Numbered from the whole stretch's first letter, positions 1 through 59,973 are shown. The stretch: DNA of 60,111 bases, filler included, from Fonticula-like sp. SCN 57-25 (GCA_001724245.1; 10 parts of 10 records of this genome joined end to end with filler, not necessarily neighbours in it); one strand, 5' to 3'. Numbers and translations are program-made. The notes: a model not told the origin generated them from the letters alone.

Positions 1-262
1 GGGGTCAACTGGTGGCGGGAAAGTGACGCTTGAAGCGAGTGGAACGGGCGTGGATGCGATTGGTGAACACGTGACTGATGTGGAGAGTGCGAGAAGGTGA
101 TTGGGTGATGGGGTGATTGGTGAAGTGACGGTGATTGGTGGGGAAGTGGAGAGGCCGAGAGTAGAAGGGGAGACACTCGTAACGGCGACCCAGCTGGCGG
201 CTATATTGGAACAAGGGTAAGTAAGTAAAGGGCAAAAAGAGGAGTGAAAGTGAAAGTGAATA

Positions 263-308
<46 letters not shown>

Positions 309-2303
309 TGATGGATAGATAGATAGATAAATATTGATGAAGTAGATAGATAGATAGATAGATAAAGTGAAATACACTGATAAAGTGACACAAACAGAAC
401 TAAAAATAAACCAATCCCATTCCCATTCCCTTTCCTCTTTCTCTTTCCCATTTCTCTTTCCTTTATACGCACTTTCCAAACAAGACACCGTGCCCAACTT
501 TCCCGCCATTTCCTCCCTCGAACACTCCGAAAACTGCACACCCATCGTCACCCCCCCCCCATCACAGCATTCATAATAAACGGCCCCACGTGGCCAGCAC
601 ACGCCCCATCTTCATCATGACCTGCCCCAAGCACGTGACCAACCTCATGAGCAAGTACAGTGTAAAATCCAATGTCTGTATTTTGGCGGGAAACGACGGT
701 TGTTCCAGAGGCTGTTTGGCCTGATAGTTGGGGGGTGGCGGTGAGGCGGCAAATGCTGGCGAGCCAGGCGAGGCCGACGGTCGTCGCTGAACTGCCGGCT
801 CTAAGGAAGGGTTAGAGAGGAAGTGGGGGAAAAAGAGGGAAGAAAAAGAGATAAAATGATATAGAATATGATATAGGATAATATGATACTGGATATGATA
901 CTGATACTGATACTGATACTGATACTGATACTGATATAATGATAATAAGATGATACTATCACATACTGACACAGTAGTGATGTGACACACATTGATAATA
1001 ATATAACTCATAATGTGACCAAAATGAAACTTTTTCTACTTTCATCACTCAATACACTTTTCAAATGTCATCATATCATACCACTATAAAAACACCCAAT
1101 ACCAACATACTTTCCTTCTCTTTCTTCTTCTATGCCCTTCTATACCCTTCTAAGCCCTTCAATTCCCTTCTCTTTCCCTCCCTTTTCGTACTGATAGCAA
1201 TTGGTGATGTCGATCCACAATGCCTCTGTCGACACCGGCGCCGCCGCCGCATACCTCGCCCCCCTCCACACTGAAAACCCCGACAGCCGATCCGCGATCG
1301 ACATCCCGCTCGCGCACGCCGTCCGGAACGTCGACCCGCACGACGTGTCAAAGACCCAGCTGCCGCTCGGCACGACGAGCGTCACGTTGAGATCGGATGA
1401 GAAGCGCTCATTCGCCCATGCGATGGCGCCGAGGACATCGGCCATGACATCGGAGGATGATTTGCCAGACATGTGATTGCAGTCGACAAAGACGCCGACG
1501 CGCGCAATTTGGGCAACGCTCAGGTCGGCGCGGCGAGCGCGAGCGCTGGAAGGCAAGGGATCGGCGTCGGGATCCGATGTCGCGCACGCCATGGCGGCGG
1601 CATCGTTGGGCGGGAGATCTGACCAATCAGATTCGCGGAAAACAGTCATGTCGGTGAAGCGGGCATGGAGGGGGTCAAACTCGGGCTGGATGCGGAAATA
1701 GTCGCCGCCGAGCACAAAGTAGCCGCTGACGACGAGAGAGGGCCAGACTTGGCGGACTGTGATGAAGGAAAGGCCGCTCGCGGGATCGCCGCCGTACGAT
1801 ACAATGCGGCCTGCGGGGCATCGAAGTGAGAAAAAAAAGGGGGTCAAATCAATAAAAATGAGCGATTTCATTCAAAAAATGACTTTTCTTCTTCTTTTTT
1901 CGTCTTTTTTCCCATTTTTATCGCTTTTTACTATCAAAAATCGTACCGGCATAAGGAGCCATAAAAACCGATCCCCGTGATCCATCAGTGCCGAGGTACT
2001 CTTGATCGCCGAAATTGTCAGTGGCGGTGTAGTGCATGACGACCATCTTGCCATCAACAACAAACGACAGCTCGAGATCAGACGGCAGATCACGCAGCGA
2101 TGACAGCGAAAGCGACGCGCGGCCATTCAGCCGATTACTCATGCTCACGACATCATACCGGGCGATCCGATCACGGGGTACTGTCCAATCCCATGAGCCA
2201 TTCAAAATCCAAAAAAAAAGATCTCGCGCATACCTGTCACTGACGACGCTGCAACAGCCGCCACGAGCGCCAGTAGCGCCCACAGGCAGTGATGCCGCGG
2301 CAT
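1..2303 (-). CDS. Secreted ADAM/reprolysin-like (M12B) metalloprotease, 3' partial
   Basis: Signal peptide MPRHHCLWALLALVAAVAASS; exons 2303-2234, 2180-1947, 1810-1192, 800-473, 200-<1; furin-like RARR; zinc motif HEVGHVLGAGHD, Met-turn IMNA, then FSECS. Apparent 1-nt frameshift in the C10 run at 551-560. Confidence 0.85.
263..364. repeat. (GATA)n microsatellite in intron
   Basis: Direct tandem atag/gata repeats. Confidence 0.95.
884..936. repeat. (TGATAC)n microsatellite in intron
   Basis: Tandem ctgata repeats. Confidence 0.9.
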
Positions 2304-2843
2304 CCCGATGGTCAACTGAAGAAAGTGGTCTCTAGGAGACGCAGCGCAGCTTCGGGCAATTTTTCCGAAGTATGTCAACAAGGGCGCACCAATCATGGAG
2401 CAGGATTCAGGGTAGACTACCCGTAAATGTGTCAAGGTAGATCAAAATCATCACCATGGATGGTATTTTTGGATGCTTGGCATTCTCGGCCTTCCCTTGG
2501 CGGCTTTTGGTCAACTTTGATAGTGTCGCCCAATAAACATATCCGTAGTATTATAGTGATATAATCTGTTATGTATAGTTGTTGACAGTGAATATGAAGC
2601 AGTATTTATCGTATTCATGTCATCAATATGGCGGGAAAATTCCTCTTTTGTTCACTTTTATTCATATCATACCAATACAACCCCACCAACAGGAAAACTA
2701 CTAATACACTAATACACTAATACATACCAAATAACAATACTACCAATCACACTAATACAATATCATATACCATACATTCATATATTCCACTTTTACCACT
2801 TTTTCCCGCCAACATTCCCGCCAATCACAACAACACACACGTC

Positions 2844-4790
2844 TTACTCCTCTCCGTCTCCACATGCCGCCTCAACGCCAACAAATTTTCCGCCTCAATA
2901 TTAAATACTCGCATATGAACACGTGTTGATATTGCCACTTGAGGAACACGACGCATATCATACAAGGCCACGTGGTTGAGTGAAGGCAAACTTAATAATG
3001 ATTTGATGGCGATTTCGCTGACATTATGACAGCCGTCCAGTTCAATAGAGGTTAGGAGGGGGCAATGGGAGGCGAGGTGGGAAATGCCGTCGTCGGTTAC
3101 CTTGAGGGGCAGTTAGTGGAAGTGCAAATTGAAACACAATTTGCACACACATAATGACGTACACAACTACACATATACACATTGTCATACATGAACCTAA
3201 TTATGTACATATATAATGTCATACATATGTACGTACATATGTACGTACATACACAATGTCATACACAATAACACACAAAACAATCTTAATCACACACACA
3301 CACACACACAATCATATATACTTAATACACACACTTACCATCCATATTCACAATCACACTCAATATACTTTCATATTTACCTTTCCATTACTCTTTCCCT
3401 TTCCTTTCCATTCACGTACATGTTCACAATAAGACAACACGACATGCCTCAACCCCCTCGCCGTCACCGCCATCGCCCTCACACTCTTATCAGTCAACCG
3501 AGTCACACACTCAAGGTCCACGTGGGTCAGTTTTGGAAGGCACTTGAGGAGCACTTCGAGGCCAGTGTCGGTCATTTCGTCGCAATCGGATGCTTCGAAT
3601 ATTTCGAGGTGGGGTGTGGCGGTGGCGAGGGCGAATAGGGAGCGATTAGTAAGTAGTGTGCAGCCTGATATCTTTAGATCTAGATAAAAGGTTAGTAATG
3701 GGAATGAAGAGATGAATGAGTAATATAATAAATATGGCATGAAACTTTCATTTCACCATACAACACATCATTGAATATCAAATAGATATACACAATAATA
3801 CTCATTTAATATCATGAATATGAACACATAATCAATACTACATACACACACAATCATACTTCATCATCATACACATCATCATCATACAATCATCATACAC
3901 ATCATCATACAATCATACACAATCATCATCATACATCATCATCATAAACAATCACTATACACATACACAATCATCATCATACCATCATACACAATCATCA
4001 TCATACAATCAACACACATCATATTCCATCCCCCTTATCTCCATTCGTACCTCTAATAGAAACCGGTTTCGCCGCACAAAACCTCTCAATTCCCCCATCC
4101 GTCACCCTCGCACACCTACTCAAATTGACACTCTTCAAGCACTTCATTCCACCAATCACAGCCAAGCAGTCATCCCTCACCGACCCACACCCAGCAAGAT
4201 CAAGTACCCTTAAATAAAAGCAGCCACGTGCGATCGCCTCGGCGCCGACACGTGACACGAGTGACGCGCTCCAGGCCAATGAGAGCTCTTCGAGTGCGGC
4301 CATGTGGCGCAGTGGCACCAATGCGGTTTCGTCGGCGCGGCTGAGGGCACTTAAGGAAAGGCGGCGGACACGTGGGCAGTGCGCGGCGAGAAGGGACATG
4401 CCACGTGCGGTCACGTGATATACGCGGCCGAAGGAAATGTCCTCGACGTTGGGGCAGGCGGAAAAGAGGGAAATTTCGCGGTCGCTGAGCTGTGGCAGGG
4501 CTGTGACATGGAAGGTGCGGAGATGGGCGCCGCTGCGGGCGGCGGCAAAGTGGGCGCGCGGGATGAGGGGGGGGGAAGGAGATGATGCGCCAGAGGGAGG
4601 CGTCGTAGGTGAGGGAGCGCCAGGTGCGGCTGACGGTGGCGATGCGCGCGAGATCACCGCGGGAGAGATGCGAGAGGATCTGGATTGATGTCTCGCGCGG
4701 CAAGAGGCCCACAATGTCAATGGCGGATTCGGAATCAAGATGATCCGACGGCAAAACATCAATGGAAAAGAGAGAGTCGTCGGCCGTCAT
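2844..4790 (-). CDS. F-box/LRR protein (FBXL type)
   Basis: F-box LLPRETSIQILSHLSRGDLARIATVSRTWR; Cys-containing LRRs (LDLAGCGSVRD, VNLSRCARVTDGG); exons 4790-4051, 3679-3420, 3100-2844; apparent frameshift near the G9 run 4567-4575. Confidence 0.88.
3850..4020. repeat. Degenerate (CATCATACA)n low-complexity repeat in intron
   Basis: Visible tandem catcatacac/aatcat units. Confidence 0.85.
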
Positions 4791-5470
4791 GGTCAACGTT
4801 GCGTTGCTTCCGCGATGATGCACGGGCGGGATGAGAGCATTGAGATCAAGAATGGCTAGATTCGCCCCCTGGATGCCCACACGCACACGGGCAAAGGGGA
4901 ATCTCGGGGATCACCGCGCGGGATCCCCAAAAAAGATACTAGCAAATTAAAAGTAAAATAACTAAAAATGTGCGTCCTAAAGAGAAGAAAGGCGCGGCAC
5001 TAGGCGTCCACTGGCGGCGCGGCGGTGATCATGCGGGTGCGGGCGACAGCGCAACGCGCACCAGGGCTGACGTAATCACTTCAAACATAATCTGGGGTTG
5101 AATCAGGGGATAGGGGTAAAATCATGATCCAAGTGCCATATCGAATCGCATTTGTAAGCCCATATGAATGGTCATATACAAGTATGAATTTCACGTGAAT
5201 TGTCATACATTGCATCATTACATATGCCACATTTCAATTACAGTATATTTACTTCTTTTATCAATTGTCCTATTCGTTACTTCATGGTCTTCATTGTCAT
5301 CATGTGAATCACATAACATAATCTTTATTGACATATTAATGGATACAAATTATCATATACACACCACTATATTAAACACTCTCAATATCAAATCACAATA
5401 TCACATTCAATATCACTCATATACTCACTCATATATCTTTCGTATTCATCCTTATTCATCCTTTTCTTGC

Positions 5471-6348
5471 TCATTCACCAATCAATGCCCTCGCCATTGG
5501 CACATTATAAGCGAAATCCCAAAACGCAACCGTCCCATCCACCGATGCTGACACAACACCCGTCGCGCCCACGTGGACACAATACACTCTACTTCCGTGC
5601 CCCGCAAGTGTATGCAATAGCCTTTTCCCATCCCATATCTTTATAGTAGCATCATATGACCCACTTGCTATACGACGCGCATCCGCATCAACACTGCGCA
5701 CAATATCCACGTGGCCGCGTAGCACACGATGATCACGTGATCTCGTGCATATAACTCTCACGTGACCATCACCTGATCCGGTGATGATCTGGCCGCCGTG
5801 GGCGCGGATGCTGGCAACGCCACGTGGGTGCGGAAAACGGGTAGGAGCGGCCACGTGGGTGTGAGGAAGGACGGCCACGTGGCGGTCACCACTTGCAGAA
5901 TAGATAAAAAATGTGTCTAAATCGAGTGCGTTTACGGCGGCGGTGTGGAGGTTAAGGACGCGGAGGAGGGATTGGCGGGAAAGTGACCACTCGCGGATAC
6001 TAAAAAAGGAAATGAGAAAAGTGGAAATGAGAAGGAAAAGATAAAGGAAAAGAGAGATAAAATGTGGATATGAGTTTGATAAAGTATGTATACAGATACA
6101 GATACAGATATAGATATAGATATAGATATAGATAATATTATAGATACAGATATAATATAGATTCAAATACAGATATAGATACAGATATGAACAATGTCAT
6201 GCAAATATCAAATATAATAATAATAAAGTGCGCACGTGAGGTCTGCTCCGCCCGTGACTAGTTTGTCACCAGCGTACTTTAGGCACGCAACGGCGCCAGA
6301 ATGTCCGCGCAGAGAGTAATATTTATAGTCATCATGACGGTCCCATAC
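5471..6348 (-). CDS. WD40-repeat protein, C-terminal part (FBXW/beta-TrCP-like)
   Basis: GH...WD repeats (LRGHVDIVRSVDADARRIASGSYDATIKIWD); exons 6348-6236, 5999-5471. Confidence 0.85.
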
Positions 6349-6358
6349 CTACAAAGAG

Positions 6359-6458: not shown

Positions 6459-6561
6459 TACATTCTAATCCCGCCAATCCCAAAATCGTCTCTAATCTGA
6501 GACGATTCGCGTCACCCGAGGCCAAACAACAGCGACCCGGCCCGTGATCATCGCCGCCATC

Positions 6562-7821
6562 ATGAACACTGCGACGCTTCAGACTGTGATTGGCGTGCAC
6601 GTCTCTGCGGGCGACGACGTCAAGGAGGTGTACGTGCGCCTCCCGGTGTCGACAAAGACATCGACGGTGGACGTTGTGCGTACATTGGTGGCCAAGAATT
6701 TCGGGGATGAGGATCCCGCCAAGTTTGCCTTGTACGAGGCGGATTACGTCAAGCGTGCGTGCACTTTTTCGCCATTTTCATATCTATTCTCATATCATTT
6801 TGTGTCTAATTCATTTTTAATTTATAGTTGAGGAGAATGTCGAGTTTGTTGCAATTTCCGACTATGTCGCCAAGTCTGATGACGAGCTCATGTTCCTCAA
6901 GGGCGAAAAGATCACGCTGATCCGCAAGGAGTCCGCCGACGTGTGGTACGGCGAGTGCGAGGGGATCGAGGGGTCCTTTCCGGCGAACCGCGTCAAGCCG
7001 GCTGACAAGCCGCGGCTCGTCGACAACACCACCCGTACGTGACATGCGCCATGGAATGTGGCATGGGGATGGCGGGATGCGGGATGCCGGGGATGCCGCA
7101 TCGGCATCATATTGCTTCATATTGCATCATCATATTGCTCTACTTTACCTCTACTTTTCTCTGCTTTTCTCTGCTTTATTGTGTGCTGATCCATTTGCAG
7201 GTGTGTGCATCAGGGCGCTCAAGGATGGCGAGATCCCGCTGTTTGTGCAGTACAACTGGAAGTCGCACAAGGGGTCGTCCAATTTCACTTTTCTGCTCAA
7301 GGAAAAGGAGGTCGAAGTGCGCGAGAACGCCACAAAGGTACGTGCAATATGGGGCAGTTTGCATGTGCAATTTGGGAATGTTTGCGTGTGTGTTGTAGGG
7401 ATGTTTCGCGGGCATTTGGGCCTTTTGTCGTGTATTGTTGATTCCATAGCTTGCCAATGTGCAATATGAAGTGTAGTTTGCACATGTGCAATATGACACT
7501 CGGTTTGCACACGTGCAATATAAAGTTCAGTTTGCACTTTTATGTCATTTTTTTCTCTTTTTCCTCGTGTATTGTCCCTCTCTTGGCAAGTGATCTGCAT
7601 CATAATGCAAACTGCAATATCCATGCCAACTCGAATGCAAACTCACCCTCTTATAGGAAATGTACCTCAACTTGAGCGCCGCCAAGCTCCGCGGCCTTCT
7701 TGCGACCCTTGATCACCAGGAGAAGCGCCAGCTTGACGAGATCACGGCCAAGTATGAGAAGCAGATGGCCGGGTATAAGCTCGCATTGGTCGAGGCGCGC
7801 AAGCACGTGCAGGCGGCCTAA
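6562..7821 (+). CDS. RASSF-like protein: RA domain with an inserted SH3 domain, plus C-terminal SARAH-like coil
   Basis: Exons 6562-6754, 6828-7034 (SH3: AISDYVAKSDDELMFLKGEKI...WYGECEGIEGSFPANRV), 7201-7337, 7657-7821; RA motifs KFALYE...RALKDGEIPL...FLLKE; SARAH-like LSAAKLRGLLATLDHQEKRQLDEITAKY. Confidence 0.85.
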
Positions 7822-8203
7822 TGTATTCATATTATATTCACACGATCAATACACGGATCATTACGACATATGATGATAGATAGAGATATTGTGGCCATTT
7901 CTTATGATATGGTATGTGATCATGGTATGTGATATGATATGGCTATGGCACGTGATATAGTATGGATATAACAGTGGTATCTTGAGTGGGCCAAAGAGTA
8001 AAAGTTTTCGTCCATGTCACGTGATCATATGGTGTGACTTTAATTGCAAAAAACTATTGTTTTATTATATCCAAAAACGCATACTTACACTGATACCCCA
8101 AAGCAAAAAACTACCAACAATGCTACCAAAATATACTACCTACCATGACATCATCACAAAACATGACGTCACCACTGACACCATCATGACGTCATCACCC
8201 ACA

Positions 8204-9933
8204 TCACATGATGATTGCCGTGGCGTTGTCCGCGTCCATGACGACATCCTCATTCTCGCGCATCATCAGCGACACCATGCGCGTCCCAACCACCTCACAA
8301 TCAATCTGCATATGCTTGGCCACGTGCTCACCATCAGATGACGTAATCACTTTTCCTTGATTCTGCGGAATGAGCAGCGACAGCCGCGGCGAGCCGCCCG
8401 CGCCCTTTTCATTGGGCATCACGGGCATGGCGTGCGCGCAAAACATGTACGCAGTGTCGTCGCGCGGCTCAAACGGAACAGAGGCGGGCGAAGAGCCCAC
8501 GTGGACGGCGACGGATGTGATTGGCTCGTTTTTGGGGGAGGCGCGCAGCGATTGGTCGAGCCACGATCGCAGGTCGACCGGCTCGACGGGTGTGTGGCTG
8601 TCGGTCAGGTTGGCCGCCAGCGAAGCCGACGCCAAAGTAGCAGAAGCAGATGATGACGTAGACGATGACGTAATCACAGGCGACGCAACAGATGACGTAA
8701 TCACATTTGAGGCGGACGTCACTGCCGGGGGGGCCGAAAGGAGCGGCACGAGGGCGGACGTCGGCGGCGGCGACGCACTCGACGCCGCGCCGGAAATAGA
8801 AAGAATCGATCGACCGCCGCCGATCACGTCATTCTCGGCCAATGGGCGCTGCAGGATGGTCGGCGCGGCGATCACGAGCAGCGCGAGGCCCATGAGCGCG
8901 ACGATCTGGGACGCGCGCGCGAGGGGGCGGCGGCCGCCCTGGGGGGGGGGGGCGAGGGACCCCCCGGGCTGCATAGTGGCCGACGCGCCGCCGCTTTCGA
9001 GGACGGCCACGCGGCGGCGGAGCGATTCGTTTTCGCGGCGGAGCGCGTCGACTTGCTGCTCGAGGGTGGCGAGGTACTCTTTGTGGCGCTTGCGAGAGAG
9101 GCTCGCGGCTTCGCGGTTCTTGATCAGGCGTTTTTCGCGCTTGAAAGACATATTCTCTGTGGAAAGAGGGGTAAGTAAAAGGGAAAGTAAAGAAAAAGCG
9201 ATGAAAAAGTAAAGAAAAAGACATCAAAACAACAACAACAAACAAGAAACGATCATGATCACGAAGCCACTGATGCCACCGATGATCCCCACCATCTTAT
9301 CCCGCCATGACGCATCCCAAAAAGTCGTCTATAATAACGTACGCGGTGGCGACTGCTCGGGCTTGAGCATCATCCCGGCCTGCTGCTCGTCCATCGTGCC
9401 CATCATCGGTGCATGCTGCATGGGGATCACCGGGAACTCTGACTTCATCCCCGCGAGCGTCCTGTTGCCGCTCTCGGGCGACGATGCCGGCGAGTACTCG
9501 ATCTTTACGTAAGAGTCCGATCCCGCCGAGTCGCTGTCGGACCACGCGAACGTGGAGGGCGAGTCGGCCGATGGCGCGGCGGCATTCTTGTAGAGGGCCT
9601 CATCCGAAGCGGGCAAAAAGGGGTCGGTAGTGTCCGCAACATCGTCGCAAAAAACGGAACTGCTCAAAGGAGAGCTAAAAAAGTCATTTCCGTCGTTTTC
9701 GGGAGAGCGCGGGACCGAATATTCACTGCAGAGTGAGAACAGAGATGGGCAATCATCAGCAAAAGAGAAAAAAAAAAGGTGGCGAAAGAGGAGGAAATGT
9801 CGTACGCAGGAAACCCGCCAAACGAAACCTTTTAATAAAATAACGTTAATAACGGCAAGAAAAAAAAGAGCACGAAAAAGCAGCGCACCTCGTCCAGGTG
9901 GTGGAAAAGGGGATTCGCGAACCCGCTATCCAT
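8204..9933 (-). CDS. ATF6: ATF6-like ER-membrane bZIP transcription factor
   Basis: Exons 9933-9889, 9828-9806, 9659-9343, 9156-8204; bZIP KREKRLIKNREAASLSRKRHKEY, TM helix, S1P-like site RSIL, lumenal motifs RDDTAY, PRLSLLIP and MQIDCEV. Confidence 0.85.
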
Positions 9934-29195: not shown

Positions 29196-29776
29196 GCGAC
29201 ATGGGCGCCGTCGCGACTGCCAAGCTGCGCAAGTCGGAGCTTGAGGTTGCCGAGCTGACCATCTCGCTTACGCGCGAGCGCGAGCAGGGCGCGCAGACAG
29301 AGTCGTCGCGCCTGGCGCTCGAGAAGCGCGTGCAGGAGCTGCTGACCAAGATTGCCGAGCTCGAGTTTATGGCTGCGCGCCAGGCGCCGATGCGCGCCGC
29401 CGCCGTCGCGGCCGCCACGGGCACCGTCGAGAACGACTACCGCAACTACGCCGAGGAGCTCGAGGTCGCGCTCCGCGAAAAGGCCAACGCCGACAAGGCG
29501 CTGCGCAATGCCAAGCGCCAGGTGTCGGACGTGCAGTTCCAGCTGGCCGACGACCAGAAGAGGAGGCAGGCGGTCGAGGACGAGCTGCAGCGCGCTCAGC
29601 AGGTGTCCCGCAATCTGCGCGACCAGGTCGAGGAGCTCGAGGCGCAGCTCACACACGTCGAGCTCGCCAAGAGGCGCGCCGAGCGGGAGGTCGAGATCGA
29701 GCGCGAGCGCGCCGCAAAGGCTGAGCGCGAGAGCGCCCGCGTAAAGACGCGCCTCGGGGCCGCCATCCTCGTGTAA
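29196..29776 (+). CDS. Coiled-coil protein C-terminus (myosin-tail-like), 5' partial
   Basis: Heptad-rich E/K/R/L sequence with host codon bias. Confidence 0.65.
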
Positions 29777-30037
29777 AATGTTTACCTCTTTCTTTTGTTT
29801 TGATTGGTCGCCTGAGGAGATCTTTCCTGTTGTTCGATGTCGTTTACTTTTCGTGTGCCGCTCGTCGTCGGATATTATAACTACCACGCCGTGCCCTTTG
29901 TCATTCCCAATACAACCCATTCTAATCACAATTGATGCACTTTAAGGAACACGTTCAACTGAAAATGGCACATGTATGGAGATACTTACTGCTTTTATTG
30001 TTAAAAATCGAATTCTTTTCTGTTGCAATCACAAAGT

Positions 30038-31426
30038 CTACTTGAGGTCGAGGAGGAGCGCCTTGGGGTTCTCGACGTACGTCTTCCAGGCGTTGGAGAA
30101 GCGCGCCATGGTCGCGCCGTCGATGACGCGGTGGTCTGCGCTCCACGAAACCTGCATGATGTGGGCCGGGAAGACCTGCCCGTTCTTGTCGAACCGGGGC
30201 AGCTTTTCAATCTTGCCGACGGCGCCAATGCAGACCTCTGGGCTCACAATGATCGGGGCCATGTACGTCCCGCCGACGGTGCCAATGTTGGACAGCGTAA
30301 AGGTGCCGCCCGAGAGGTCGCCGGGGCCGAGGCGGCCCTCCTTGCCGCTGACCTGTAGCCGCTGGAGCTCCGAGGCAATGTCCATGATGCTCAGGTCCTG
30401 CACGTTCTTGATGTTGGGCACGACGAGCCCGTTGGGGGTGTCCATGGCAACGCCAATGTTGTGCGCGCCCTTGTAAATAAGCTCGGTCTCGTCCGCCGTC
30501 AGCGAGCTGTTGAGCACGGGGAACTGCTTGAGCGCCAGCGACGCGGCCTTGATAAAGATCGGCATGTACGTCAGCTTGACGCCGCGGGCCTCGGCGGCGC
30601 CCTTGAGCGACGCGCGAAGGTCAACAAGCGCATTCAGCGTCACCTCGTCGGCGTAGCCAAAGTGCGGGATGCGGCGCCACGACTCATTCATCGTCTTGAC
30701 CATCGCCTTCTGGAAGCCGCGGATCGGGCGGCGCTCATCGCCGGCAACGACGCGGACGGCAGGGGCAGCGGCAGCGGCGGCGGGCGCAGCAGCAGCGGCC
30801 GGGGCGGCGGGCGAAGGGCCCTGCTCAATGAAGCGCAGAACGTCCTCCTTGAGCACGCGGCCGTCCTTGCCGGTGCCGGCCACGCGGCGCAGATCGACGC
30901 CGTGCTCCTTGGCCACGCGGCGGACAGCGGGCGTCGCAAAGGTGGCAAGGTGATCGGCAACGGCGGCGGGCGCGGCGCGCGCGGCGGCAGCAGCAGGAGC
31001 AGCGGCGGCGGAAGGAGCGGACGCGGCGGCGGGGGTGGATTCCGGCGCGGCATCGCCGCCCTCGACGTCAATGTCCATGAGGGGCTGGCCGACGGCGGCG
31101 GTATCGCCGACCGTGTAGTAGAGCTTCTTGACGACGCCCGTGAAGGGGCTCGTGATGTCGACCTTGGCCTTGTCGCTCTCGACAGTGCAGACCTGGTCAA
31201 AGAGCGTGACGCGATCGCCCTCCTTGACACGCCACTCGCGCACATCAACCGCGACAATGCCCTCACCAATGTCGGCAAGCTTGAAGACCTCAACACGGAG
31301 GGCCGCGGCGCTCACGCGGAACGCCCGCGAAGAGTGAACGGGCATCTAAAGACATTGCGTTAGAAGCGATTTCAAGCAAGAAATGAAGGCGAGACATACA
31401 CGCCCAACACGCTGAAGCAGCATCAT
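30038..31426 (-). CDS. DBT: Branched-chain 2-oxoacid dehydrogenase E2
   Basis: [10 protein letters not shown], lipoyl site ESDKA, ATPAVRR E3-binding domain, [10 protein letters not shown]; intron 31399-31346. Confidence 0.93.
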
Positions 31427-31601
31427 TCTCGAGCAGCGACCTCCCAGCGACCGCCTGCCACGCCGTGTGTGAGAAACTTTACACTTTCTGGATCGCGATC
31501 TGAAGTTGATCGCGATTGGTGTGTGATCGCGATTGAAAGCGATGCGAGATCCTGATCGGTCACATGAACGCGAAACACAAGCAAGCAAGGCCTACCCCGC
31601 A

Positions 31602-33036
31602 ATGCGCTCCGCGGTGATTGCGTTCGCGCTTGCTGCGCTCGTCGCAGGCAGCTTTGCCGCGTTCAATGAGCGCGCCTACATTGGCGACCGCTACTACGCG
31701 CGCGTGTTTGGTCCTTTCAAGACGGACCGCATGGCGCAGCTCGCCGAGATCATTGACTTTCACTTTGACGCCCACCGCAACAAGCACGAGGTGGACGTCC
31801 TCGTGAACGATGCCGCCATGGCTCGCCTTCACGATGCCGGCTTCCGCGCGATCCGTCTTCAGAACGAGGCGCTCGAGTACAACCGCTACCTCAAGTCTTC
31901 GTCGCCAGCCAACAACCGCATGCTCGAGTACCACGACTATGAGGAGCTCACCGATCTCCTCCACGAGCTCAACGAGCAGTACCCCAACATCACCAGCGTC
32001 TTCACCGTCGGCCAGAGCGTCCAGGGCCGCGAGCTTTGGGGCATTGAGATCTCGGACTTTGTCGGCACCAAGGAGCAGGGCGAGCCCGAGTTCAAGTACA
32101 TTGGCAACATGCACGGCGATGAGAGTGCGCCGATCACGATGTGTTTCTTTCCAAACTGACCCGCTCGTAGCTGTTGGCCGCGAGATGCTCATCAACCTCA
32201 TCATCCACCTCCTCGAGAACTATGGTACTGATGACCGCATCACCAACATCATTGACTCGACCCGCATCTTTATCATCCCCTCGATGAACCCCGACGGCTT
32301 TGAGCGCGGCATCCGCGCCAACCTCAACGGCTACGATCTCAACCGCGACTTCCCGTACGCCGCGTGGTGCAATGAACGTATGAATGCTGACCAGAANACA
32401 TTTGACTTATGCCGCAATTTTAGCAACTTTGTGCTTTCGGCCAACATGCACGGCGGCTCTGTCTGCGCCAACTACCCCTTCGACGGCTTTGAGCAGCAGT
32501 CGCGCTGCCAGCGCGAGGCCTCGGTGACCCCCGACGACGACGTCGCGATCGACCTTGCGCTGACCTACTCAATCAACAACCCCGAGATGTACAACAGCAA
32601 CTCGTTTGATAACGGCATCACGAACGGCGCCGAGTGGTACTGCCTGTACGGCGGCATGCAGGACTGGAACTACGTGTGGATGGGCGACGTCGAGCTCACC
32701 ATGGAGCTGTCCAACGTCAAGAACCCCGCCGCCAGCCAGCTCGCCGGCTTCTGGGAGGACAACCGCGAGAGCCTCCTCGCCTACCTCGAGAAGGTGCACA
32801 TGGGCGTCAAGGGCCGCATCACCAGCGCCGCCACCGGCGAGCCCATCGTCGCCGAGATCACCGTCAAGGGCCGCGAGGACTTTGTCGCCTACTCGGAGGA
32901 GACGTTCGGCGACTACTTCCGCCTCCTCCTCCCCGGCACGTACACCGTCATCGTTACGGCGCCGGGCTACAGCTCCGCCTCCCAGACGGTCACCGTCTAC
33001 GAGGGCGAGCCCACCGTCCTCGACATCAAGCTCTAA
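31602..33036 (+). CDS. Secreted M14B carboxypeptidase (CPD/CPE-like)
   Basis: Signal peptide; [34 protein letters not shown]; sequence apparently missing at N 32397. Confidence 0.9.
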
Positions 33037-33155
33037 GCTAGGTGGACTGTGACGCCACAGTGGAATGCGCAGATTCATGTGCAAGTCAATATATTATACA
33101 GCGAAATATGCGCGAAACACAACTCAAAATGGCAAATATGTACACTAAAAATGGT

Positions 33156-33917
33156 CTACTTGTCGGCGAGCTCGTCGAGCATGGCCTTTTCCCACTGCGC
33201 GTACTCGTCCTCCTTGACGACCGTCGTCGCGGCGGCGGCCACGGGGATCATTGCGTGCACGCCGTCCACCGTCGACAGCTTTGCGCGCTTCCGCGGGCTC
33301 GTGTCGTCGGCATCCTTTACCTCGCGCCCGGCCGCCTCCGCCTCCTTGATCGCCGCCTCGGCGTGGAGCGTCACCGCCGCACAGGCCGATGCAAACTCGC
33401 GCGCGGAACACCGCGCCAGCTCGCACAGCTGCGCCTTGTCGAGCCGCGTACGGAAGCGCTGCCCGCAGACGTACAGCACCGCAACGGTGAACATTGACCG
33501 CGCAGCATCATCTGCGGTGCGCCCTGTGCGAATGAGGCCGGCGCGCACATCAGCTAGAACGCGCTCGGCGACTGGTAAAAGCGGAAGGGATCCGAAACGA
33601 ACACACAGTTCCTTGAGCGATAACTCATTCGGTTTAACATTCAGCGCGGCGCGGAGACGCTCGACACCCGCGAGGTACGGCTTCTTTGACACGGCCGCGA
33701 GCCGAAGCAGCGTCGACGCGTCAGCATGCACGCCGGCCTCAATGCATGCAAGCTGCACGCATGCGATCGGTTTCGCGATCTCGGCTGGCCCAAGGCGCAC
33801 ACCGCGCACGTCGGCGAGACGTTGAAGCTCGCCCGCGCGGTCTACAACGCGCGGCGCGTCGTGCGCGGACAGCTGAAGCTCCCGCACAGCATCGCGCACC
33901 CGCGTCGCCACCGCCAT
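33156..33917 (-). CDS. ORC6: Origin recognition complex subunit 6
   Basis: TFIIB-like helical pattern, LKELCVRFG, C-terminal EYAQWEKAML. Confidence 0.8.
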   Translation of the reverse strand: MAVATRVRDAVRELQLSAHDAPRVVDRAGELQRLADVRGVRLGPAEIAKPIACVQLACIEAGVHADASTLLRLAAVSKKPYLAGVERLRAALNVKPNELSLKELCVRFGSLPLLPVAERVLADVRAGLIRTGRTADDAARSMFTVAVLYVCGQRFRTRLDKAQLCELARCSAREFASACAAVTLHAEAAIKEAEAAGREVKDADDTSPRKRAKLSTVDGVHAMIPVAAAATTVVKEDEYAQWEKAMLDELADK

Positions 33918-33981
33918 TCAAACACTCAAAACCGTTATGGCCATGTGGATTGCAAACAGATTGCAAACTGCAACTTGAGCC

Positions 33982-35103
33982 ATGCTGGCGGCACGAAAGC
34001 TGGCGGGCGGTAAGCGCCGCGAGGATGCGGACGATGGCGCCCAGCGTCCAAATACGACTCTGCCGCAGGCGGAGGACATTTACGTGTTTAGTGCGCTCAC
34101 CATTCCATTTGCTTTGCGTTGATGCTAAACATTGCCTTTTTGCAGAGGAGCCCGAGTCGACGAAGAAGCGCTCGGCGGGCAAGTCCGATGGCGGGGCCAC
34201 CAAGCGCCCCAAGCCGGCGGCCCCGGCCGTTGGCCCCGACGGCGAGCCTTTGAGCCGTGGCCAGCAGCGCAAGATCTCGACGCAGGAGCGCCGGTCGTCA
34301 AAGAAGGGCAGCGAGGTTGTTGAGAATCTGCGCTCGCGGTGGGAGAAGCTCCGCATTAAGCACATGGACAAGGAGGAGCGCCGCGTGCTGATTGACGAGG
34401 CGATGGCGGCTGTTTCTGGCCGCGTTCACGACATTATTTTTAAGCACGACGCGTCGCGTGTTGTGCAGTCGTGCCTCAAGTACGGCACGACGGAGCAGCG
34501 CGCGGCCATCTGCGCCGAGCTCAAGGACCACTACGTGCAGCTGGCCCGCAGCCCGTACGGCAAGTACCTTGTTGCCAAGGTGCTCAAGTTCTGCCCTGCG
34601 GCGCGCCCCGACGTTGTTGCCGGCTTCCGCGGCCACTGCGTCGCTCTTTTGCGCCACGCCGAGTCGTCTGGCCTCGTTGATGAGACCTTTACGCTGTATG
34701 CGCGTGCCCCCGAGCGCGCTGCAATGCTTCGCGAGTTTGGCGGCGCCGAGTTTTCTCTGTTCAAGGACGCTGACGCCGAGTCTGTTGAGACGCTGGTGGG
34801 CTTCCTTGAGCGCAACCCGTCCAAGCGCACGACCGTGATCAACAACCTGCGCGACAACCTGCAGGACCTCCTCAACAAGGGCTCTGGCCGTCTCCAGATG
34901 GTGCACGCTCTCCTGCACGATTACCTGCTCGGGATTGCCAACCCCAAGGAGCGCGACGACTTTCACGCCGACGTGTGCGAGCACATTGCCGAGCTCATCC
35001 ACACGCGCAAGGGCGCCGAGGTCGCCATGGCGTGCCTCCTGCACGGCTCGGCCAAGGACCGCAAGGTCATGCTCAGGGCCATGAAGGAAGCCGCCGCCAA
35101 GAT
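33982..35103 (+). CDS. PUM3: Pumilio homolog 3 / Puf6, 3' partial
   Basis: WEKLR, FKHDASRVVQSCLKYG, HTRKGAEVAM...AKDRKVMLRAMK. Confidence 0.9.
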
Positions 35104-35259
35104 NNNNNNNNNNNNNNNNNNNNNNNNNNNNNNNNNNNNNNNNNNNNTTAATTAATTAANNNNNNNNNNNNNNNNNNNNNNNNNNNNNNNNNNNNNNNNN
35201 NNNTATGTCCCATATTACCCCATCATCTTCACCCATATAACCCCACAATTTTTACTTAC

Positions 35260-36517
35260 CTTTTTGCAATTGGAAAGGTCGATGCACATCAACTGCCTAC
35301 ACGCCTTACTAAGCATAATCACGCCGCCTTCCGTCAATTCCCAACACGAATTCATATCAAGCACTTGAACACGTGACGCGAAGGTTGCAATGTACTTTAG
35401 GGCGCCGTCGCTCACGTGCCAGCAGTTGCGGAGCGAAAGGGAGCGAAGGGATTGGCCGGCAAAGCGGCAGACTTCTTGAACGGCTGTTTGGTCACGTGAT
35501 AGTGAGAGTGAGTGGAAATGCTAAAAATAGATTAGAAGCGAACCGGCGTCGGTGACGTCCTTGTTGACGACGGAGAGGTCGATGGAGGACTGGAAGCGGT
35601 CGGTGGTGATGAGGGCGCGCCAGGGTTTGCTGACGCGGCGGCAGACAAGCAAGTCCCTGAAGGGGAAAAGTGGCAAAAGGGATGAAAAGAGGAAAGAAAA
35701 TGGGGTAAAAGGGACGAAAAATGAAGAAAAATGGATGAAAAATGAAGAAAATGGGATGAAAATGACACAAGAATGGAACAAGAATGGAATGGAATGCAGA
35801 CAAAAAGTGATCAAATAATAAAGAAATTTGAACAAATTCAACACAATATAAACAAAAAGAAGGCAAATTCACACAATTATAACCAAGAATAAAACATTAT
35901 TCAAACGTGTTAATACTTGTTTTTCTTCCTCCTCTTCAACCGCACCTGATATTGAGGAAGGAAAGAATGTGTTGGATGATGTTTGGCTGCAGCAGATCAA
36001 ACGGCCCGTTCACCTCCGCCGCCTGCGGCTCCGCCTTTGACACCTGGCTCAGTTTTGACCCGTTGGCCGCGGCCGGCGCGGCATCCGATGACGCGGCATC
36101 ACCGGGATCCGTCTTTGACCGCGAGATGTCGGTGAGATGCACATCGGTCCACACGGCGATGCTCGCGCGGCGGCGGCGCGTGCCTTGACCGCGCAGGGTG
36201 GCTACAACGGGGTTGCCGCTCAGGGATGTCGCGCGATCCTCGGTGATGGCCGCGGCGGTGTCGGATTTGGCATCAGCATTGGGATTGGAATCAGTCTTGG
36301 CATCAGCTTTGGAATCTGCCTTGGAATCTGCCTTGGCATCGGCCTTGGCATCCGCATCACCGCCTTCCACTTTAACGGGAACTTGCTCGGCTGATGCTGG
36401 CGATGCCGGCCTCCCGCTCGACTTTGCCGGCGCCATGGCGCGATGCTGACCGTCGTCGTCGGCATTCACCGCCTCATTCGAAGGCACGGGATCCTCGGCC
36501 TCGGGACCCGGCATCAT
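35260..36517 (-). CDS. F-box/LRR protein, 3' partial
   Basis: F-box LQPNIIQHILSFLNI|RDLLVCRRVSKPWR; LRRs LSLRNCWHVSD, IDLSNCKK. Confidence 0.82.
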
Positions 36518-37081: not shown

Positions 37082-40000
37082 ATGCTGTCGCTGCGAGTGC
37101 GGGCCGCTGCCCTCGCGCCATCCCGCCGCGCGCACCTCGCCATCGCCGTGACTCCGTCTAAGAATGACTGGGAAACGCCCGGGGACGAGCTTCGTTCAAG
37201 GTACGATGCCGTCATTGTCGGCGGCGGCCACAATGGCCTTGTAGCGGTACGGCCCTTGATGCCCTGCATCCTGCCCGCTAATGTGCGTCACAGGCGTGCT
37301 ACCTTGCCAAGGCCGGCAAGTCCGTCTGCGTCCTCGAGCGCCGTCACGTCATTGGCGGCGCCGCCGTCACCGAAGAGATCGTCCCCGGCTACAAATTCAG
37401 CCGCGCCTCTTACCTCCTGAGCCTCTTTCGCCAGAGCATCATTGACGAGCTCGATCTCAAGCAGGTCGGATTCCGCGTTCATCTCCGTGATCCCTCCTCC
37501 TTTACTCCCCTTCGCGATGGCAGCGGCTACTTACTTTTAGGCTCTGATGCGGCCCTCAATCACGCCGAGATCAGCAAGTTTTCCCGCAAGGATGCCGACG
37601 CCTACGCATCCTACGAGACGATGCTGGGCCGCATCGCCGCCGCGATGGACCCGCTGCTCGACAGCGCGCCGCCTTCCCTGTCGGGCTCGCTCGCCTCGCA
37701 GGTGCGCGCGGGGATCCCGCTCGCGCGATTCGCCTCGCAGCTCGGTCGCGACATTCCAGATGCGCTGCGGATCATGACGGCGCCGGCCGCGCAGATCCTG
37801 AACGAGCACTTTGAGAGCGACGTGCTCAAGGCGACATTGGCGACGGACGCAGTGATTGGTGCATTTGTCGGGCCAGAGACACCGGGCAGCGCGTACGCAG
37901 AGGAGCGGAAAGGGACAAGGAAACGGACAAGGATAGGGGCAAGGGATAGAGAAGGAGTAGGGGATAGTGGGTATTGAATCTCATTCCCGCCATCATTCAA
38001 TGACGTAATGATGTATGCTGATGATGTCATATGTGTTAATGGTGTGAATATGCCTTGTACATTGACCATGTATCATGTGTATCATGTATCATTACCATGT
38101 CACAAGTACCATACCCATGTATGATCATCATGGATTGTATCATGTATCATTACCATGTACCATATATCATACTCATGTATCATGTATCATGTATCATAGC
38201 ATCATTCTTCTATCTTTCTCACTCCCTTCCTCTCTTTTAGTTATGTCCTCTTCCATCACGTGATGGGCAACCTCGAAGGCCGCCGCGGCGCCTGGGGCTA
38301 CGTCCAAGGCGGCATGGGCGCCCTTTCACTCGGCATGGGCGCCCTTTCACTCGCCCTCGCCCGCAGAGCAAAGTCACTCGGTGTCCACGTGGCCATCAAT
38401 GCCCCTGTCAGCCGCATCCATCTCGACAATAATCACGTGACTGCTGTTGAATTATCCTCTAGTGGTAATGTCTCTAGTGGTAGTGTGTCTGGTCGTTCGA
38501 TAGAGACAAAGTTGGCCATGTCGAATGCGACGCCTCACGTGACCTTTAAAGAGTTGCTTGATGCTGATAGGGTGGATAGTTTGAAAGGGTTAAATAGGGC
38601 GATTGGGGCGATTGATTATGGGTCTGCTACGATGAAGATTAATGTGGCTGTGAGGGGGTTGCCGGTGTTTAGGGCGCTTTCAGGGGGGGGGATGTATAGG
38701 GGGGCATATGAGGGGATGGCGAAAGGTACGAAGAAAATATAATGGGTAGTATGGGTATGAGTATGAGTATGATGTGTAGTATGAGTATGAGTATCATGAG
38801 TATGAGTATCATGAGTATGAGTATGAGTATGAGTATTGGTATGAGTATGAATATGAGTATGAGTATGAATATGGGTATGAGTATGAGAATGAGTATGAGT
38901 ATGAGTATCATTGATGAGTATCAGTATCATTGATGAGTATCATTGATGACCATAAGTATCATTGATGAGTATGAGTATCATTGATGAGTGTTATGGTGAT
39001 GAACATGATCATGAATAATGATCATTGACTATCATGATGAGTATCATTGAGTATCATGAGTATTATGAGTATCATGTATCATTGAGTATCATTGAGTATC
39101 AATTGACACATGTTACATATATTATATGATATTCCTCTCTCTTCATCTACTAACCCTCCTTCTCTTCCCTTAGGTACTCCCCCTAATCACCCCCTTCCAC
39201 ACCACCAATGCACAACACACTTTGAAGAACACGTGGACGAAATCCAATCTGCCTATGTAGACGCACTATCTGGATGCCCCTCAAGTAAACCTGTTATTGA
39301 AATGTGTGTGCCTTCTGTATTGGATAGGACAATTGCACCTGAGGGTGACCACGTGGTCAATCTGTTTGTGCAGTATGCGCCGTATAGGCTGGCCAATGGG
39401 AGGTCGTGGGATGACGAGAAGGAGGCATACGCCGATAAGGGTACAAAGGGAGAAAGGGAATGGGAACTGGTCACGTGAGAGTATGTGTCACGTGATAGTA
39501 GTCATGTGATAATAGTCATGTTTATGTTTATTATTGTTCATGTCATGGTGCATGTGCTTATGGTGTCATTTTATGACACTTTTATGTCACTTTATGACAC
39601 TTTTATGTCACTTTATGACACTTTTATGTCACTTTTATGTCACTTTTCACATGTCCCATATGATCATAACATACTACATTCACCATATTCACCCATCTTA
39701 CCCTGTTTCTTCTCTTTTTTCATAGTCTTTTCCATAATTGACTCTTATGCCCCCGGCTTCTCCGCTTCGGTCGTCGGCCGCGACATTCTCAGCCCACTCG
39801 ACCTCGAACGCACTTTTGGACTCACTGGCGGCGTACGATTGTTGCTATTTATAGTATGTTATACTAACCATATGCAATCTGCAAACATATCTACCATCAT
39901 ATCATATCTACAATGTGCCATCATATCATGCATATCTACATACGTATCTACTATCTACAATCATATCATACATATCTACTATCTACAACCATATCTACCA

Positions 40001-40295
40001 TCATATCTACATTCATATCTACAATTATATCTACCATCATATCTACTCTTCTATCTGCTCTACTCTACTACCCACACTAACATATATGCAATCTGCAAAC
40101 TGACTCTAGAACATCTTTCACGGCAGCATGGGCGTCAGTCAGCTCCACGCCCTCCGCCCACACAACACCCTCGCTGGTCACGTGACACCCATAAAAGGCC
40201 TTGCCCTATGTGGCAGTGGGTGTCACCCAGGGGGGGGTGTCATGGGGGCGGCGGGAAGGAATGCGGCAAGGGCGGTCATCGCAGAGGGGTGGTAA
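37082..40295 (+). CDS. PYROXD2: PYROXD2 (phytoene desaturase-like FAD oxidoreductase)
   Basis: [59 protein letters not shown]; several long low-complexity introns. Confidence 0.92.
38750..38910. repeat. (ATGAGT)n microsatellite in intron
   Basis: Tandem atgagt units. Confidence 0.92.
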
Positions 40296-48385: not shown

Positions 48386-48537
48386 GATGGCCGAAAGATC
48401 AACGCAGAGCTCCGCTGGATCCCCGCAAAACCCGGCGCAAAACCGGACCGAAGCGATGAAAAATACGTGAAAATTCGATCGTACGTCACGTGATTTGATC
48501 AGTTTGCAGTTTGCGTAGCACACGTGGAGGAGCAAGG

Positions 48538-58750: not shown

Positions 58751-58846
58751 GCCGAGGAGAAGGTGCTGAAGCAGATGATAGGGGTTGCAATCGAGTCCAC
58801 GTGGACGACATCGTGAGTCAGCACTTCCTTATCACCCCACGTGGCC

Positions 58847-59681: not shown

Positions 59682-59973
59682 AAACCATCAATGTAACATC
59701 AATTATTCGCCGTATTTCAATGGGCCCACATGCCCACTTACCATCCTTTCATGCATTATTAATACATATTATGCCCTTATCATTGTTTTTATTGCGCGTT
59801 TGCCCCGATGATGCCGCCAAATGTGCCAGAGTCAATGCCCAAATGGATCGATCACGTGACAAAATCACGTGACAATCCTAGTCAGCACCAGCGGTGATCC
59901 ACGCGGAGCGTTGCGGCGTGCGCGCAGTGTCCAGCTTTTTCTCTTCTTTCTCTGCTTCTCCACGTTTTGCGCC

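Follow-up and report, generated by a model that had tools for sequence, protein, structure and literature searches.

Clustered CACGTG palindromes in exons and beside AT-rich islands of an unplaced protist, read as putative E-box-type sites

Introduction

The hexamer CACGTG is the core of the class-B E-box and of the G-box, which are bound by Myc/Max, USF, MITF/TFE, SREBP, Cbf1 and Pho4 and by the G-box bZIPs of plants. Here, we describe the occurrence of this hexamer in a window of 60,111 bases, i.e., the whole stretch of DNA that was analyzed, which was built from ten short contigs with N...TTAATTAATTAA...N spacers between them and holds 57 kb of DNA from a single metagenome bin. CACGTG is present 66 times in this window, against 19.35 ± 4.34 expected, and 66 copies were reached in none of 100 shuffles. 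Two perfect palindromes of 8 bp, CCACGTGG and TCACGTGA, each present in 17 copies, account for the excess. We treat the source as a protist that is so far unplaced and possibly belongs to the opisthokonts.

E-boxes are textbook promoter elements, whereas in this unsampled eukaryotic lineage about three sites per kb are spread across whole genes. Class-B factors are described as symmetric dimers on symmetric sites, with binding that is strengthened by homotypic clusters (PMC8431614). The bases flanking the core discriminate between factors. Of all 8-mers, CCACGTGG ranks highest for Myc-Max, whereas the binding of Myc-Max, Max and Pho4 to TCACGTGA is reduced 4-5 fold and that of Cbf1 is not (PMC4242493). 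A 5′ T distinguishes Pho4 from Cbf1 and Myc from Max; a GT flank is preferred by USF, and TCACGTGA is bound by SREBP (PMC8431614). The two octamers of the window match these two known flank classes. They share with class-B E-boxes the CACGTG core, the C-flank and T-flank classes, the symmetry of the sites, the homotypic clusters and the proximity to start codons. They differ in being far denser in coding exons (17 sites in the 2.8 kb of exons of contig 1), in leaving a footprint of His-Val pairs and rare codons, and in their ties to AT-rich, CpG-poor introns and to the 3′ parts of genes.

A second system for comparison is HIP1 (GCGATCGC) from cyanobacteria, which is conserved in and between open reading frames (ORFs) and 15-300x over-represented there (PMC5861425). 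Like the octamers described here, it is palindromic over 8 bp, has a CpG-type core at its center and is present in many-fold excess, within and between ORFs and in all frames (PMC5861425). The present case differs in that it is eukaryotic, involves two words instead of one, is clustered instead of chromosome-wide, shows a lower fold window-wide (16-17x), and concerns octamers that equal known transcription-factor optima. If the octamers constitute a DNA code over coding sequence, its strength would, to our knowledge, be matched so far only by HIP1 in cyanobacteria.

Three further systems are related more distantly. Exonic transcription-factor sites or exonic enhancers ('duons') reportedly let codons double as a DNA-level signal, as the codons discussed below may also do; we know of no description of such single-motif density and amino-acid bias among them. 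In E. coli, Dcm/Vsr very-short-patch repair raises CCWGG; there, too, a palindrome containing a methylatable C is in excess, owing to a process at the DNA level. Depletion of the T-variants is, however, unclear here (CATGTG and CACATG at 0.82x), and we know of no Dcm/Vsr-type enzymes for the source organism. Lastly, the point centromere of budding yeast has, per chromosome, a single CDEI (RTCACRTG) adjoining an AT-rich CDEII of 78-86 bp with >90% AT, plus CDEIII. TCACGTGA adjoins AT-rich DNA as well, but the window has 37 AT-rich islands of 103-478 bp with 25-42% GC in 60 kb, many of them with splice signals. A centromere-related role, as envisaged in the original prediction, finds no support, given this number of islands and their being mostly spliceosomal introns. 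A literature search on CACGTG over-representation in coding regions, on palindromes and on Myc in Capsaspora, which did not cover supplements, returned no description of the pattern.

CACGTG is Over-represented in Coding and Non-coding DNA

The excess is pronounced in contig 1 (1..6358), a eukaryotic metagenome contig with 20 CACGTG or 3.15 per kb. The 20 positions listed for it in the original prediction are all exact matches within 1-6358, and the expectation of about 1.5 sites given there holds both at uniform composition (1.55) and in 500 dinucleotide-preserving shuffles (1.56 ± 1.18; no shuffle exceeds 6). Of the further clusters that had been named, all exist, although the coordinate 46011 was wrong and the sites concerned lie at 46031 and 46056. 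The reported absence of sites from contig 29196-35103 was borne out by a count of 0.

The enrichment is specific for the hexamer. CACGTG is the highest-scoring hexamer apart from GC-only (GCCGCC-type) words, and its one-mismatch relatives are not enriched (0.4-1.7x). This is also the case near the AT-rich islands, where ten one-off neighbors together reach 54 copies vs. 69.8 expected, with CATGTG at 5 vs. 6.09 and CACATG at 5 vs. 6.11.

To divide the window into compartments, AT islands were defined by 60-bp windows of <42% GC and a length of ≥100 bp, which yields 37 islands with 8.2 kb in total, and coding DNA was represented by 64 segments (37.7 kb in total) picked by codon log-odds. Under first-order expectations, the AT islands contain 7 CACGTG vs. 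0.68, other non-coding or unscored DNA 22 vs. 4.94, and coding segments 36 vs. 13.25. Fold enrichment is thus highest in the islands and lowest in coding DNA.

Two Perfect Octamers Carry the Excess

Each octamer is expected only ~1.0-1.4 times under first- and second-order models. Even given their 7-mers, as in a 6th-order model, 8.0 and 8.7 copies are expected for CCACGTGG and TCACGTGA, respectively. The over-representation amounts to 16-17x in the whole window and 34-41x near AT islands, where dinucleotide shuffles predict 0.39 and 0.29 copies and 13 and 12 are found. The bases at −1 and +1 are complementary in 38/66 sites, while 19.2 such sites are expected from the marginals. With C and T as flanks, 17 sites are C/C, 17 are T/T and merely 2 are C/T hybrids, and the degenerate word YCACGTGR occurs 36 times vs. 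4.19 expected. The equally palindromic GCACGTGC and ACACGTGT are not enriched, with 3 and 1 sites. Outside the 8 bp, the flanks of the 66 sites show no palindromy, and there is no general palindrome excess in the window. Adjacent sites are mostly of one type, as illustrated by 5734/5759, 5821/5852/5876, 39472/39489, 58798/58838 and 59853/59866.

This architecture could be produced by a HIP1-like drive, in which the octamers are spread or kept by sequence-specific mismatch repair, methylation or a structural role in chromatin, independently of gene regulation, and are simply tolerated by coding sequence. The near absence of mixed-flank sites suggests that perfect self-complementarity itself is selected or generated, and the degree of over-representation, the presence of sites outside coding DNA as well as in each of the three frames, and a footprint at the amino-acid level would fit as well. 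However, the octamers are strongly clustered, and the genome-wide hyper-abundance of HIP1 is not seen in the 57 kb, as CACGTG is at baseline >400 bp from islands (15 vs. 11.25) and one contig of 5.9 kb has 0 sites. Such a drive also leaves the low numbers of GCACGTGC and ACACGTGT unaccounted for, these words being as palindromic. A drive of the Vsr type in particular predicts depletion of the T-variants, and these are not clearly depleted. Moreover, the enriched words equal known transcription-factor optima and are present in promoters. A HIP1-like drive is therefore considered unlikely.

The Octamers Leave a Footprint in Codons and Amino Acids

If CACGTG merely followed from the encoded proteins, shuffles that preserve them should reproduce its frequency. 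The original prediction held that a DNA-level code is superimposed on exons, in which case the enrichment should outlast an amino-acid-preserving shuffle, and this was found. Coding segments contain 36 sites vs. 19.0 ± 3.3 (maximum 32) in 1000 synonymous shuffles that keep the protein, and vs. 11.3 when codon order is shuffled. For the hand-checked exons of contig 1 (2,799 bp), the 17 sites compare with 3.98 ± 1.65, a number reached in 0/2000 synonymous shuffles, and with a codon-order expectation of 1.66. By frame, the coding segments hold 22/9/5 sites, where synonymous shuffling gives 13.7/1.7/3.6. The largest relative excess therefore concerns NCA-CGT-G (9 vs. 1.7), of which both codons are rare here.

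The amino-acid sequence is affected as well. The exons of contig 1 encode His-Val 13 times vs. 3.2 expected, and Val-His twice. Where coding DNA lies no more than 400 bp from an AT island, it encodes His-Val 28 times vs. 9.4, whereas farther away the observed number equals the expected one (17 vs. 17.1). Near islands 16/28 His-Val pairs are written CAC-GTG, for which codon usage predicts 8.3, and 6/25 CGT codons lie inside CA-CGT-G, compared to 3/71 far from them. Judged from the sequence, this suggests that codon choice and partly amino-acid choice (His-Val) are bent toward the DNA word. The synonymous shuffles, the over-use of His-Val and the rare NCA-CGT-G pairs together support the predicted code.

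The densest example is the 3′ part of an FBXW7/Cdc4-like WD40 gene (5474..6358, minus strand; Pfam WD40 8.2e-21), whose closest solved relatives are FBXW7 and FBXW1A/11. Its last exon (5474-6001) is preceded by an AT-rich intron (~6002-6235) and an upstream exon that runs off the contig. As had been noticed, seven sites lie in this last exon (5570..5881; sites 5570, 5708, 5734, 5759, 5821, 5852, and 5876). They span 306 bp and read His-Val five times and Pro-Arg-Gly and Ser-Arg-Asp once each. CCACGTGG starts at 5569, 5707, 5820, 5851, and 5875, and TCACGTGA at 5733 and 5758. A further CACGTG (6233..6238) coincides with the putative exon/intron junction, which would read CAC|GTGCGC on the minus strand. 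The GHV at 5708 is also present in human FBXW7. In the solved WD40 repeats used for comparison, Thr or Ser occupies the position that precedes the hydrophobic residue of D-x-T/S-[LIV]-K/R-[VIL]-W; by our reading, two repeats of this gene, outside the aligned part, have D-R-H-V-A-V and D-G-H-V-R-V instead.

A second cluster is located in the F-box/LRR (FBXL-like) gene of the same contig (2828..4791, minus strand, ATG near 4791; Pfam F-box-like 1.7e-13, LRR_6). From the putative splice sites, this gene has exons at ~4022-4791, 3432-3680, and 2828-3112, separated by AT-rich introns at ~3681-4040 and 3113-3425. Five sites (4225, 4249, 4369, 4402, and 4412) are grouped in one LRR exon (4225..4417). 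Four of these use NCA-CGT-G, encoding Ala-Arg-Gly, Ser-Arg-Val or Pro-Arg-Val, and one encodes His-Val. Three more (2920, 2969, and 3519) lie in two 3′ LRR exons (2920..3524). In the reprolysin-like M12 metallopeptidase gene (1..2303, minus strand; Pfam Reprolysin_5 1.5e-11; signal-peptide-like start at ~2303), the sites 587 and 632 are in the HExxH exon (551-811), with 68 further 3′. The remaining site of those treated here is a TCACGTGA (5192..5197) in an intergenic, AT-rich island that separates the stop codon of the WD40 gene from the start of the F-box/LRR gene.

Could the sites be a by-product of preferred CAC and GTG codons in His-Val-rich repeat proteins, or of a mix of contigs from two organisms? 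At least 19/66 sites are indeed in WD40 or LRR exons, and distant homologs share 2/4 His-Val of the PYROXD2-like exon described below as well as GHV of the WD40 exon. In addition, the island association is marginal within contigs, and contig 29196-35103 combines different introns with the lack of sites. This explanation is nevertheless very improbable and already largely refuted by the shuffles, as neither synonymous nor codon-order shuffling reproduces the counts, and by the enrichment being higher in non-coding than in coding DNA. It also conflicts with the frame-1 sites on rare codons, with the difference in CGT codons near and far from islands, and with the abrupt changes in density inside single genes and contigs (0 sites in 35499-38256, 12 in the rest of that contig).

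Some of the His-Val pairs are old: the four of the PYROXD2-like exon comprise HHVMG, invariant in 16 homologs, PHVTF, which is common in these, and two lineage-specific substitutions without indels. A transposon footprint, in which CACGTG would appear as inserted His-Val, is ruled out for this exon by the alignment of all four His-Val without indels.

Sites Concentrate near AT-rich Islands and in AT-drifted Gene Parts

Most of the islands (about 33% GC) are spliceosomal introns with GT..AG ends and CTAAC-like branch sites. Contig 1 has nine islands (225-472, 828-1147, 1841-1956, 2525-2810, 2892-3026, 3125-3424, 3658-4041, 5096-5488, and 6001-6237), mostly GT..AG introns rich in microsatellites, others being intergenic and 2892-3026 lying inside a coding exon, as a part of it with low GC. 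At distances of 1-400 bp from islands, sites have a density of 1.75-2.73 per kb (2.2 pooled), with a peak at 51-400 bp; at greater distances, the density is 0.35-0.72 per kb (0.47 pooled). In dinucleotide shuffles, 6.33 sites are expected for the 43 observed at 1-400 bp. Among all hexamers, CACGTG separates near from far best (43 vs. 15, p 2.4e-8), and TCACGTG is found 35 times near and 5 times far. The stretches rich in islands are contig 1, 35204-40779, 6459-8500, and 45982-48600, although several islands have no nearby site. No convincing terminal inverted repeats were found around islands. The association with islands that had been proposed is thus real, but weaker than claimed, with p ~0.05 within contigs.

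Composition changes along with site density. The observed/expected ratio (o/e) of CpG is 0.49 in islands and that of TpG/CpA 1.48, compared to 1.23 and ~1.07 elsewhere; CpG o/e is 1.03-1.04 up to 100 bp from islands and 1.25-1.31 beyond 200 bp. The GC content at third codon positions (GC3) is 0.49-0.70 and CpG o/e 0.59-1.17 in site-bearing exons, with the exception of three long ORFs (the bZIP, DEAD-box and large WD40 genes) that have 1-3 sites each. Eight shorter site-bearing exons fall within GC3 0.49-0.65, and LYS12 exon 2 has GC3 0.70. Site-free exons have GC3 0.66-0.85 and CpG o/e 1.16-1.42. This is illustrated by the PYROXD2-like gene, where exon 2 (GC3 0.79) has 0 sites, exon 3 (0.60) has 4 and exon 4 (0.49) has 2. 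Pooled coding segments with GC3 <0.6 comprise 3.2 kb and 12 sites (3.7 per kb), whereas the others have 0.56-0.79 per kb. Across all 64 segments, the rank correlation between GC3 and sites is null (rho 0.01).

As a side observation, GC3 and CpG o/e drop steeply from 5′ to 3′ inside genes (37300-40288; 47071-48385), at the first long AT-rich intron; in the homoisocitrate-dehydrogenase-like gene, GC3 goes from 0.84 to 0.70. The long introns are strand-asymmetric on the transcript, with a nearly C-free 5′ part and a nearly G-free 3′ part. They carry varied micro- and minisatellites, and their 3′ parts are rich in CACTTT(T), for example in 225-472, 3658-4041, 38734-39152, and 39489-39738.

In composition, the intron-rich parts toward the 3′ end of genes look like the product of CpG methylation and deamination. 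Hence, CACGTG could be a survivor: methylated islands and their flanks deaminate, and the CpGs of CACGTG persist when bound or unmethylated. The ratios in the islands, the climb of CpG o/e with distance and the lower values in site-rich exons are all in line with this, as are the 7 CACGTG kept by the islands vs. 0.76 expected and a repeat at 40298-40343 that resembles a deaminated derivative. On the other hand, survival cannot raise density above that of undecayed DNA, and the flanks have 2.2 sites per kb vs. 0.47 far away. The ~7-fold excess in flanks with CpG o/e ≥1.03 shows survival alone to be insufficient, and the methylation it requires is read from composition. As the full explanation, survival is thus quite unlikely. 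The protected CpGs of the original prediction can accordingly be retained for the islands, but leave the excess in the flanks unexplained. Decay of CGCGCG, CACGCG, and CGCGTG to CACGTG was considered as a further source and contributes, by estimate, at most ~0.2 per kb, which is too little.

The repeat at 40298-40343, just past the stop codon of the PYROXD2-like gene, consists of three copies of the 16-bp unit GGTCATGTGATCATGT. It includes TCATGTGA and TCATGTGG, the CpG-to-TpG derivatives of the two octamers.

The concentration of sites in exons between long AT-rich introns, in any frame, could also point to a signal in RNA. CACGUG octamers might serve as exonic splicing enhancers for small exons among long introns, or pair with each other and fold the transcript. 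Neighboring octamers of the same type are indeed predicted to form hairpins (z −2.7, −1.6, and −3.4), and selection at synonymous sites for exonic splice signals is reportedly a known kind of effect. An RNA-binding protein would, however, have no reason to favor a perfect 8-nt palindrome, and hairpins are a trivial outcome of palindromes, a pair of different type giving z +1.07. No site pairing across introns is present in the PYROXD2-like gene. As the sites are palindromic, their strand cannot be read, and besides exons they occur in introns, intergenic islands and the short promoters of divergent genes; parts of the latter two are perhaps transcribed. An RNA-level signal therefore seems a distinctly poor candidate.

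Putative E-box Sites under Proposed Selection at the DNA Level

Three promoters contain paired sites at 3-135 bp from start codons, while most of the 66 sites are intragenic. In a divergent promoter of ~150 bp (48487..48526), the sites 48487 and 48521 lie between the ATG of a homoisocitrate-dehydrogenase-like gene (48385, minus strand) and that of a WD40 gene (48538, plus strand). A divergent spacer of ~96 bp (58798..58843) has two CCACGTGG between putative starts at 58750 (minus strand) and 58847 (plus strand). The promoter of a CSL-zinc-finger (DPH3-like) gene (59852..59872) contains two TCACGTGA, 13 bp apart and 102-122 bp upstream of the ATG at 59974.

The explanation that we favor, with belief and doubt about evenly balanced, is that the octamers are putative sites of homodimeric bHLH-ZIP or G-box factors and are under DNA-level selection even in exons. 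Symmetric class-B bHLH-ZIP dimers, or bZIPs of the G-box type, would bind both octamers, the C-flank class corresponding to a Myc/Max- or Pho4-like and the T-flank class to a USF-, MITF-TFE- or Cbf1-like specificity. The protist would employ both as a very common cis element, as one-type pairs just upstream of start codons and as dense one-type clusters in the AT-drifted parts of genes, i.e., long AT-rich CpG-poor introns and low-GC3 exons, often in 3′ halves. In these parts, pressure for the DNA word would override codon preference (CAC-GTG, NCA-CGT-G) and partly the choice of amino acids (His-Val). Direct results of the analysis are the enrichment and its persistence in codon-preserving shuffles, the octamer structure, the location of sites in promoters and the composition of the surrounding DNA, while protein binding and the upkeep of sites by selection instead of mutational drive are what we infer from them. 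Sites of a Cbf1/USF/Myc-type bHLH factor, as originally proposed, are thus the best reading in view of the two known flank classes and the three promoters, with the binding itself being predicted. The symmetry of the sites, their homotypic pairs and clusters, the preference for the word at synonymous positions of exons, the lack of enrichment of one-mismatch words and the larger fold excess in non-coding than in coding DNA are in keeping with this reading as well.

Several points weigh against this explanation. Many clusters occupy 3′ exons or the spacers of convergent gene pairs instead of a position upstream of promoters. Some neighboring sites have 10-12 bp in common, which suggests micro-duplication instead of independent selection. 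Near or in islands 51/66 sites are found vs. 44.1 ± 4.0, and 535/10000 circular within-contig shifts reach 51; given this marginal result (p ~0.05), the association is mostly one between island-rich and island-poor stretches. The window-wide shuffle, the near/far comparison of His-Val and the compartment counts depend on crude gene models. Seven sites in 306 bp of one exon and a 3-4x excess of His-Val demand unusually strong exonic selection. In strains that are ~3% diverged, 4/4 sites are kept, a comparison that has no statistical power. Finally, more than one organism may be represented among the ten contigs.

The transcription-factor and the protected-CpG readings are not exclusive and can be combined, as a bound factor would shield its own CpG at AT-rich methylated borders. 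USF and Cbf1 have barrier or general-regulatory roles. At such possibly methylated borders, a bound factor might keep DNA open, shield CpGs, act as a barrier or cause polymerase pausing. A more far-reaching possibility, to which little weight is given, is a eukaryotic iterated-palindrome system in which a dimeric factor occupies both octamers along the AT-drifted, probably methylated parts of genes. This factor would shield CpGs and mark or insulate the exons between long AT-rich introns, and the demand for the word would rewrite codons and install His-Val and Xaa-Arg-Gly/Val/Asp.

If the octamers are bound, they offer an unusually clean natural case for gauging how a DNA-binding code constrains coding sequence, and would allow a test of whether E-box factors organize chromatin around AT-rich CpG-depleted introns. 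Should they prove to be unbound, they would represent the first eukaryotic case of an iterated palindrome of the HIP1 type. In practice, gene-finding programs and codon models that are trained on genomes of this kind should anticipate codon pairs that are driven by a motif.

Origin and Support of the Sequence

Eukaryotic genes are present on every one of the ten contigs. They include WD40, F-box/LRR, reprolysin-like peptidase, bZIP, DEAD-box helicase, USP, RhoGEF, VWA, fumarase and 2-oxoacid dehydrogenase E2 genes. The genome is GC-rich and intron-rich, with exons rich in GC and CpG, and DNA of the window was found in 14 DNA sequencing runs from bioreactor, wastewater, aquatic, soil and fungus metagenomes, with no RNA run among those listed. 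For the homoisocitrate-dehydrogenase-like exon, the top named match is the nucleariid Lithocolla globosa (64% identity), followed by Sphaeroforma, chytrids, Naegleria and Capsaspora (57-64%). The PYROXD2-like exon has relatives of 41-46% identity plus two near-identical strain variants in protein collections, and no close relative in the collections searched with it. The fumarase fragment matched bacterial clusters alone in a protein atlas, and an exact 40-mer from the WD40 exon had no match among the genome contigs searched. Contig 29196-35103 is unlike the others, with short GC-rich introns, CTGAC-like branch sites and GC3 ~0.85, and may have come from a different organism of the bin.

Logan contigs of other runs show 0 differences to contig 1 over 2366-4563, 4580-6200, 4011-4556, and 5202-5646, and site-bearing stretches are identical in Logan contigs of three runs, namely the probable source run and two others. 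A second assembly (locus L001) has the same 4/4 sites in the PYROXD2-like exon. Because these sequences reproduce the site-bearing stretches, the excess of CACGTG is not an assembly artifact. L001 (59 mismatches in ~1.8 kb) and the proteins P0121 and P0122 represent near-identical strains for this exon, all three with 4/4 sites kept; the comparison of conservation was confined to these, with 79 other loci (homologs of ~35-43% identity) left out. The strains differ from the window at 38310-38330 and 38456-38490 by in-frame tandem duplications and indels within the conserved exon, namely a 21-bp duplication that yields GMGALSL twice and a ~30-bp Ser/Gly-rich insertion. Short tandem duplication seems to be frequent in this genome and may have multiplied neighboring octamers too.

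Other Sites and Sequence Features

Six sites (7510..8503) are divided over an SH3-domain gene (one intronic, one in the last exon), the AT-rich convergent spacer next to it (two) and the 3′ end of the one bZIP gene of the window, at 8207-9220 (two). In another contig, three sites (35370..35498, minus strand) are in an exon region (35221-35520) of an LRR (FBXL-like) gene. The PYROXD2-like gene (37090-40290, plus strand) has nine sites (38257..40184) in its 3′ exons and one intron, whereas the first ~800 bp of its coding sequence lack sites; the gene converges on its neighbor.

In contig 1, the WD40 gene and the F-box/LRR gene, two genes for SCF substrate receptors, are arranged head to tail. 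Besides CACGTG, a second word of promoter type recurs, (G)ATTGGCGGGAAAGTGAC, in which a CCAAT-like box is joined to an E2F-like site, with examples at 13-31, 497-516, 680-693, 2628-2647, 2802-2826, 5965-5991, 6466-6480, and 37980-37995. The word GGCGGGAA is found 14 times in the window vs. 2.96 expected, including seven copies in contig 1 (introns, spacers and one exon start). The CRE-like words TGACGTCA and TGACGTAA occur in ~10 copies at 8140-8830, in the spacer and the 3′ coding part of the bZIP gene, and GACGTC is found 30 times window-wide vs. ~18-21 expected.

Between the F-box and LRR reading frames of the F-box/LRR gene, a run of ~10 G is present at 4555-4580, which coincides with the break between the Logan contigs 2366-4563 and 4580-6200. 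The frameshift at this place is probably an error in homopolymer length. The WD40 gene with its start at 48538 seems to have a comparable one-base frame change near 48695-48705.

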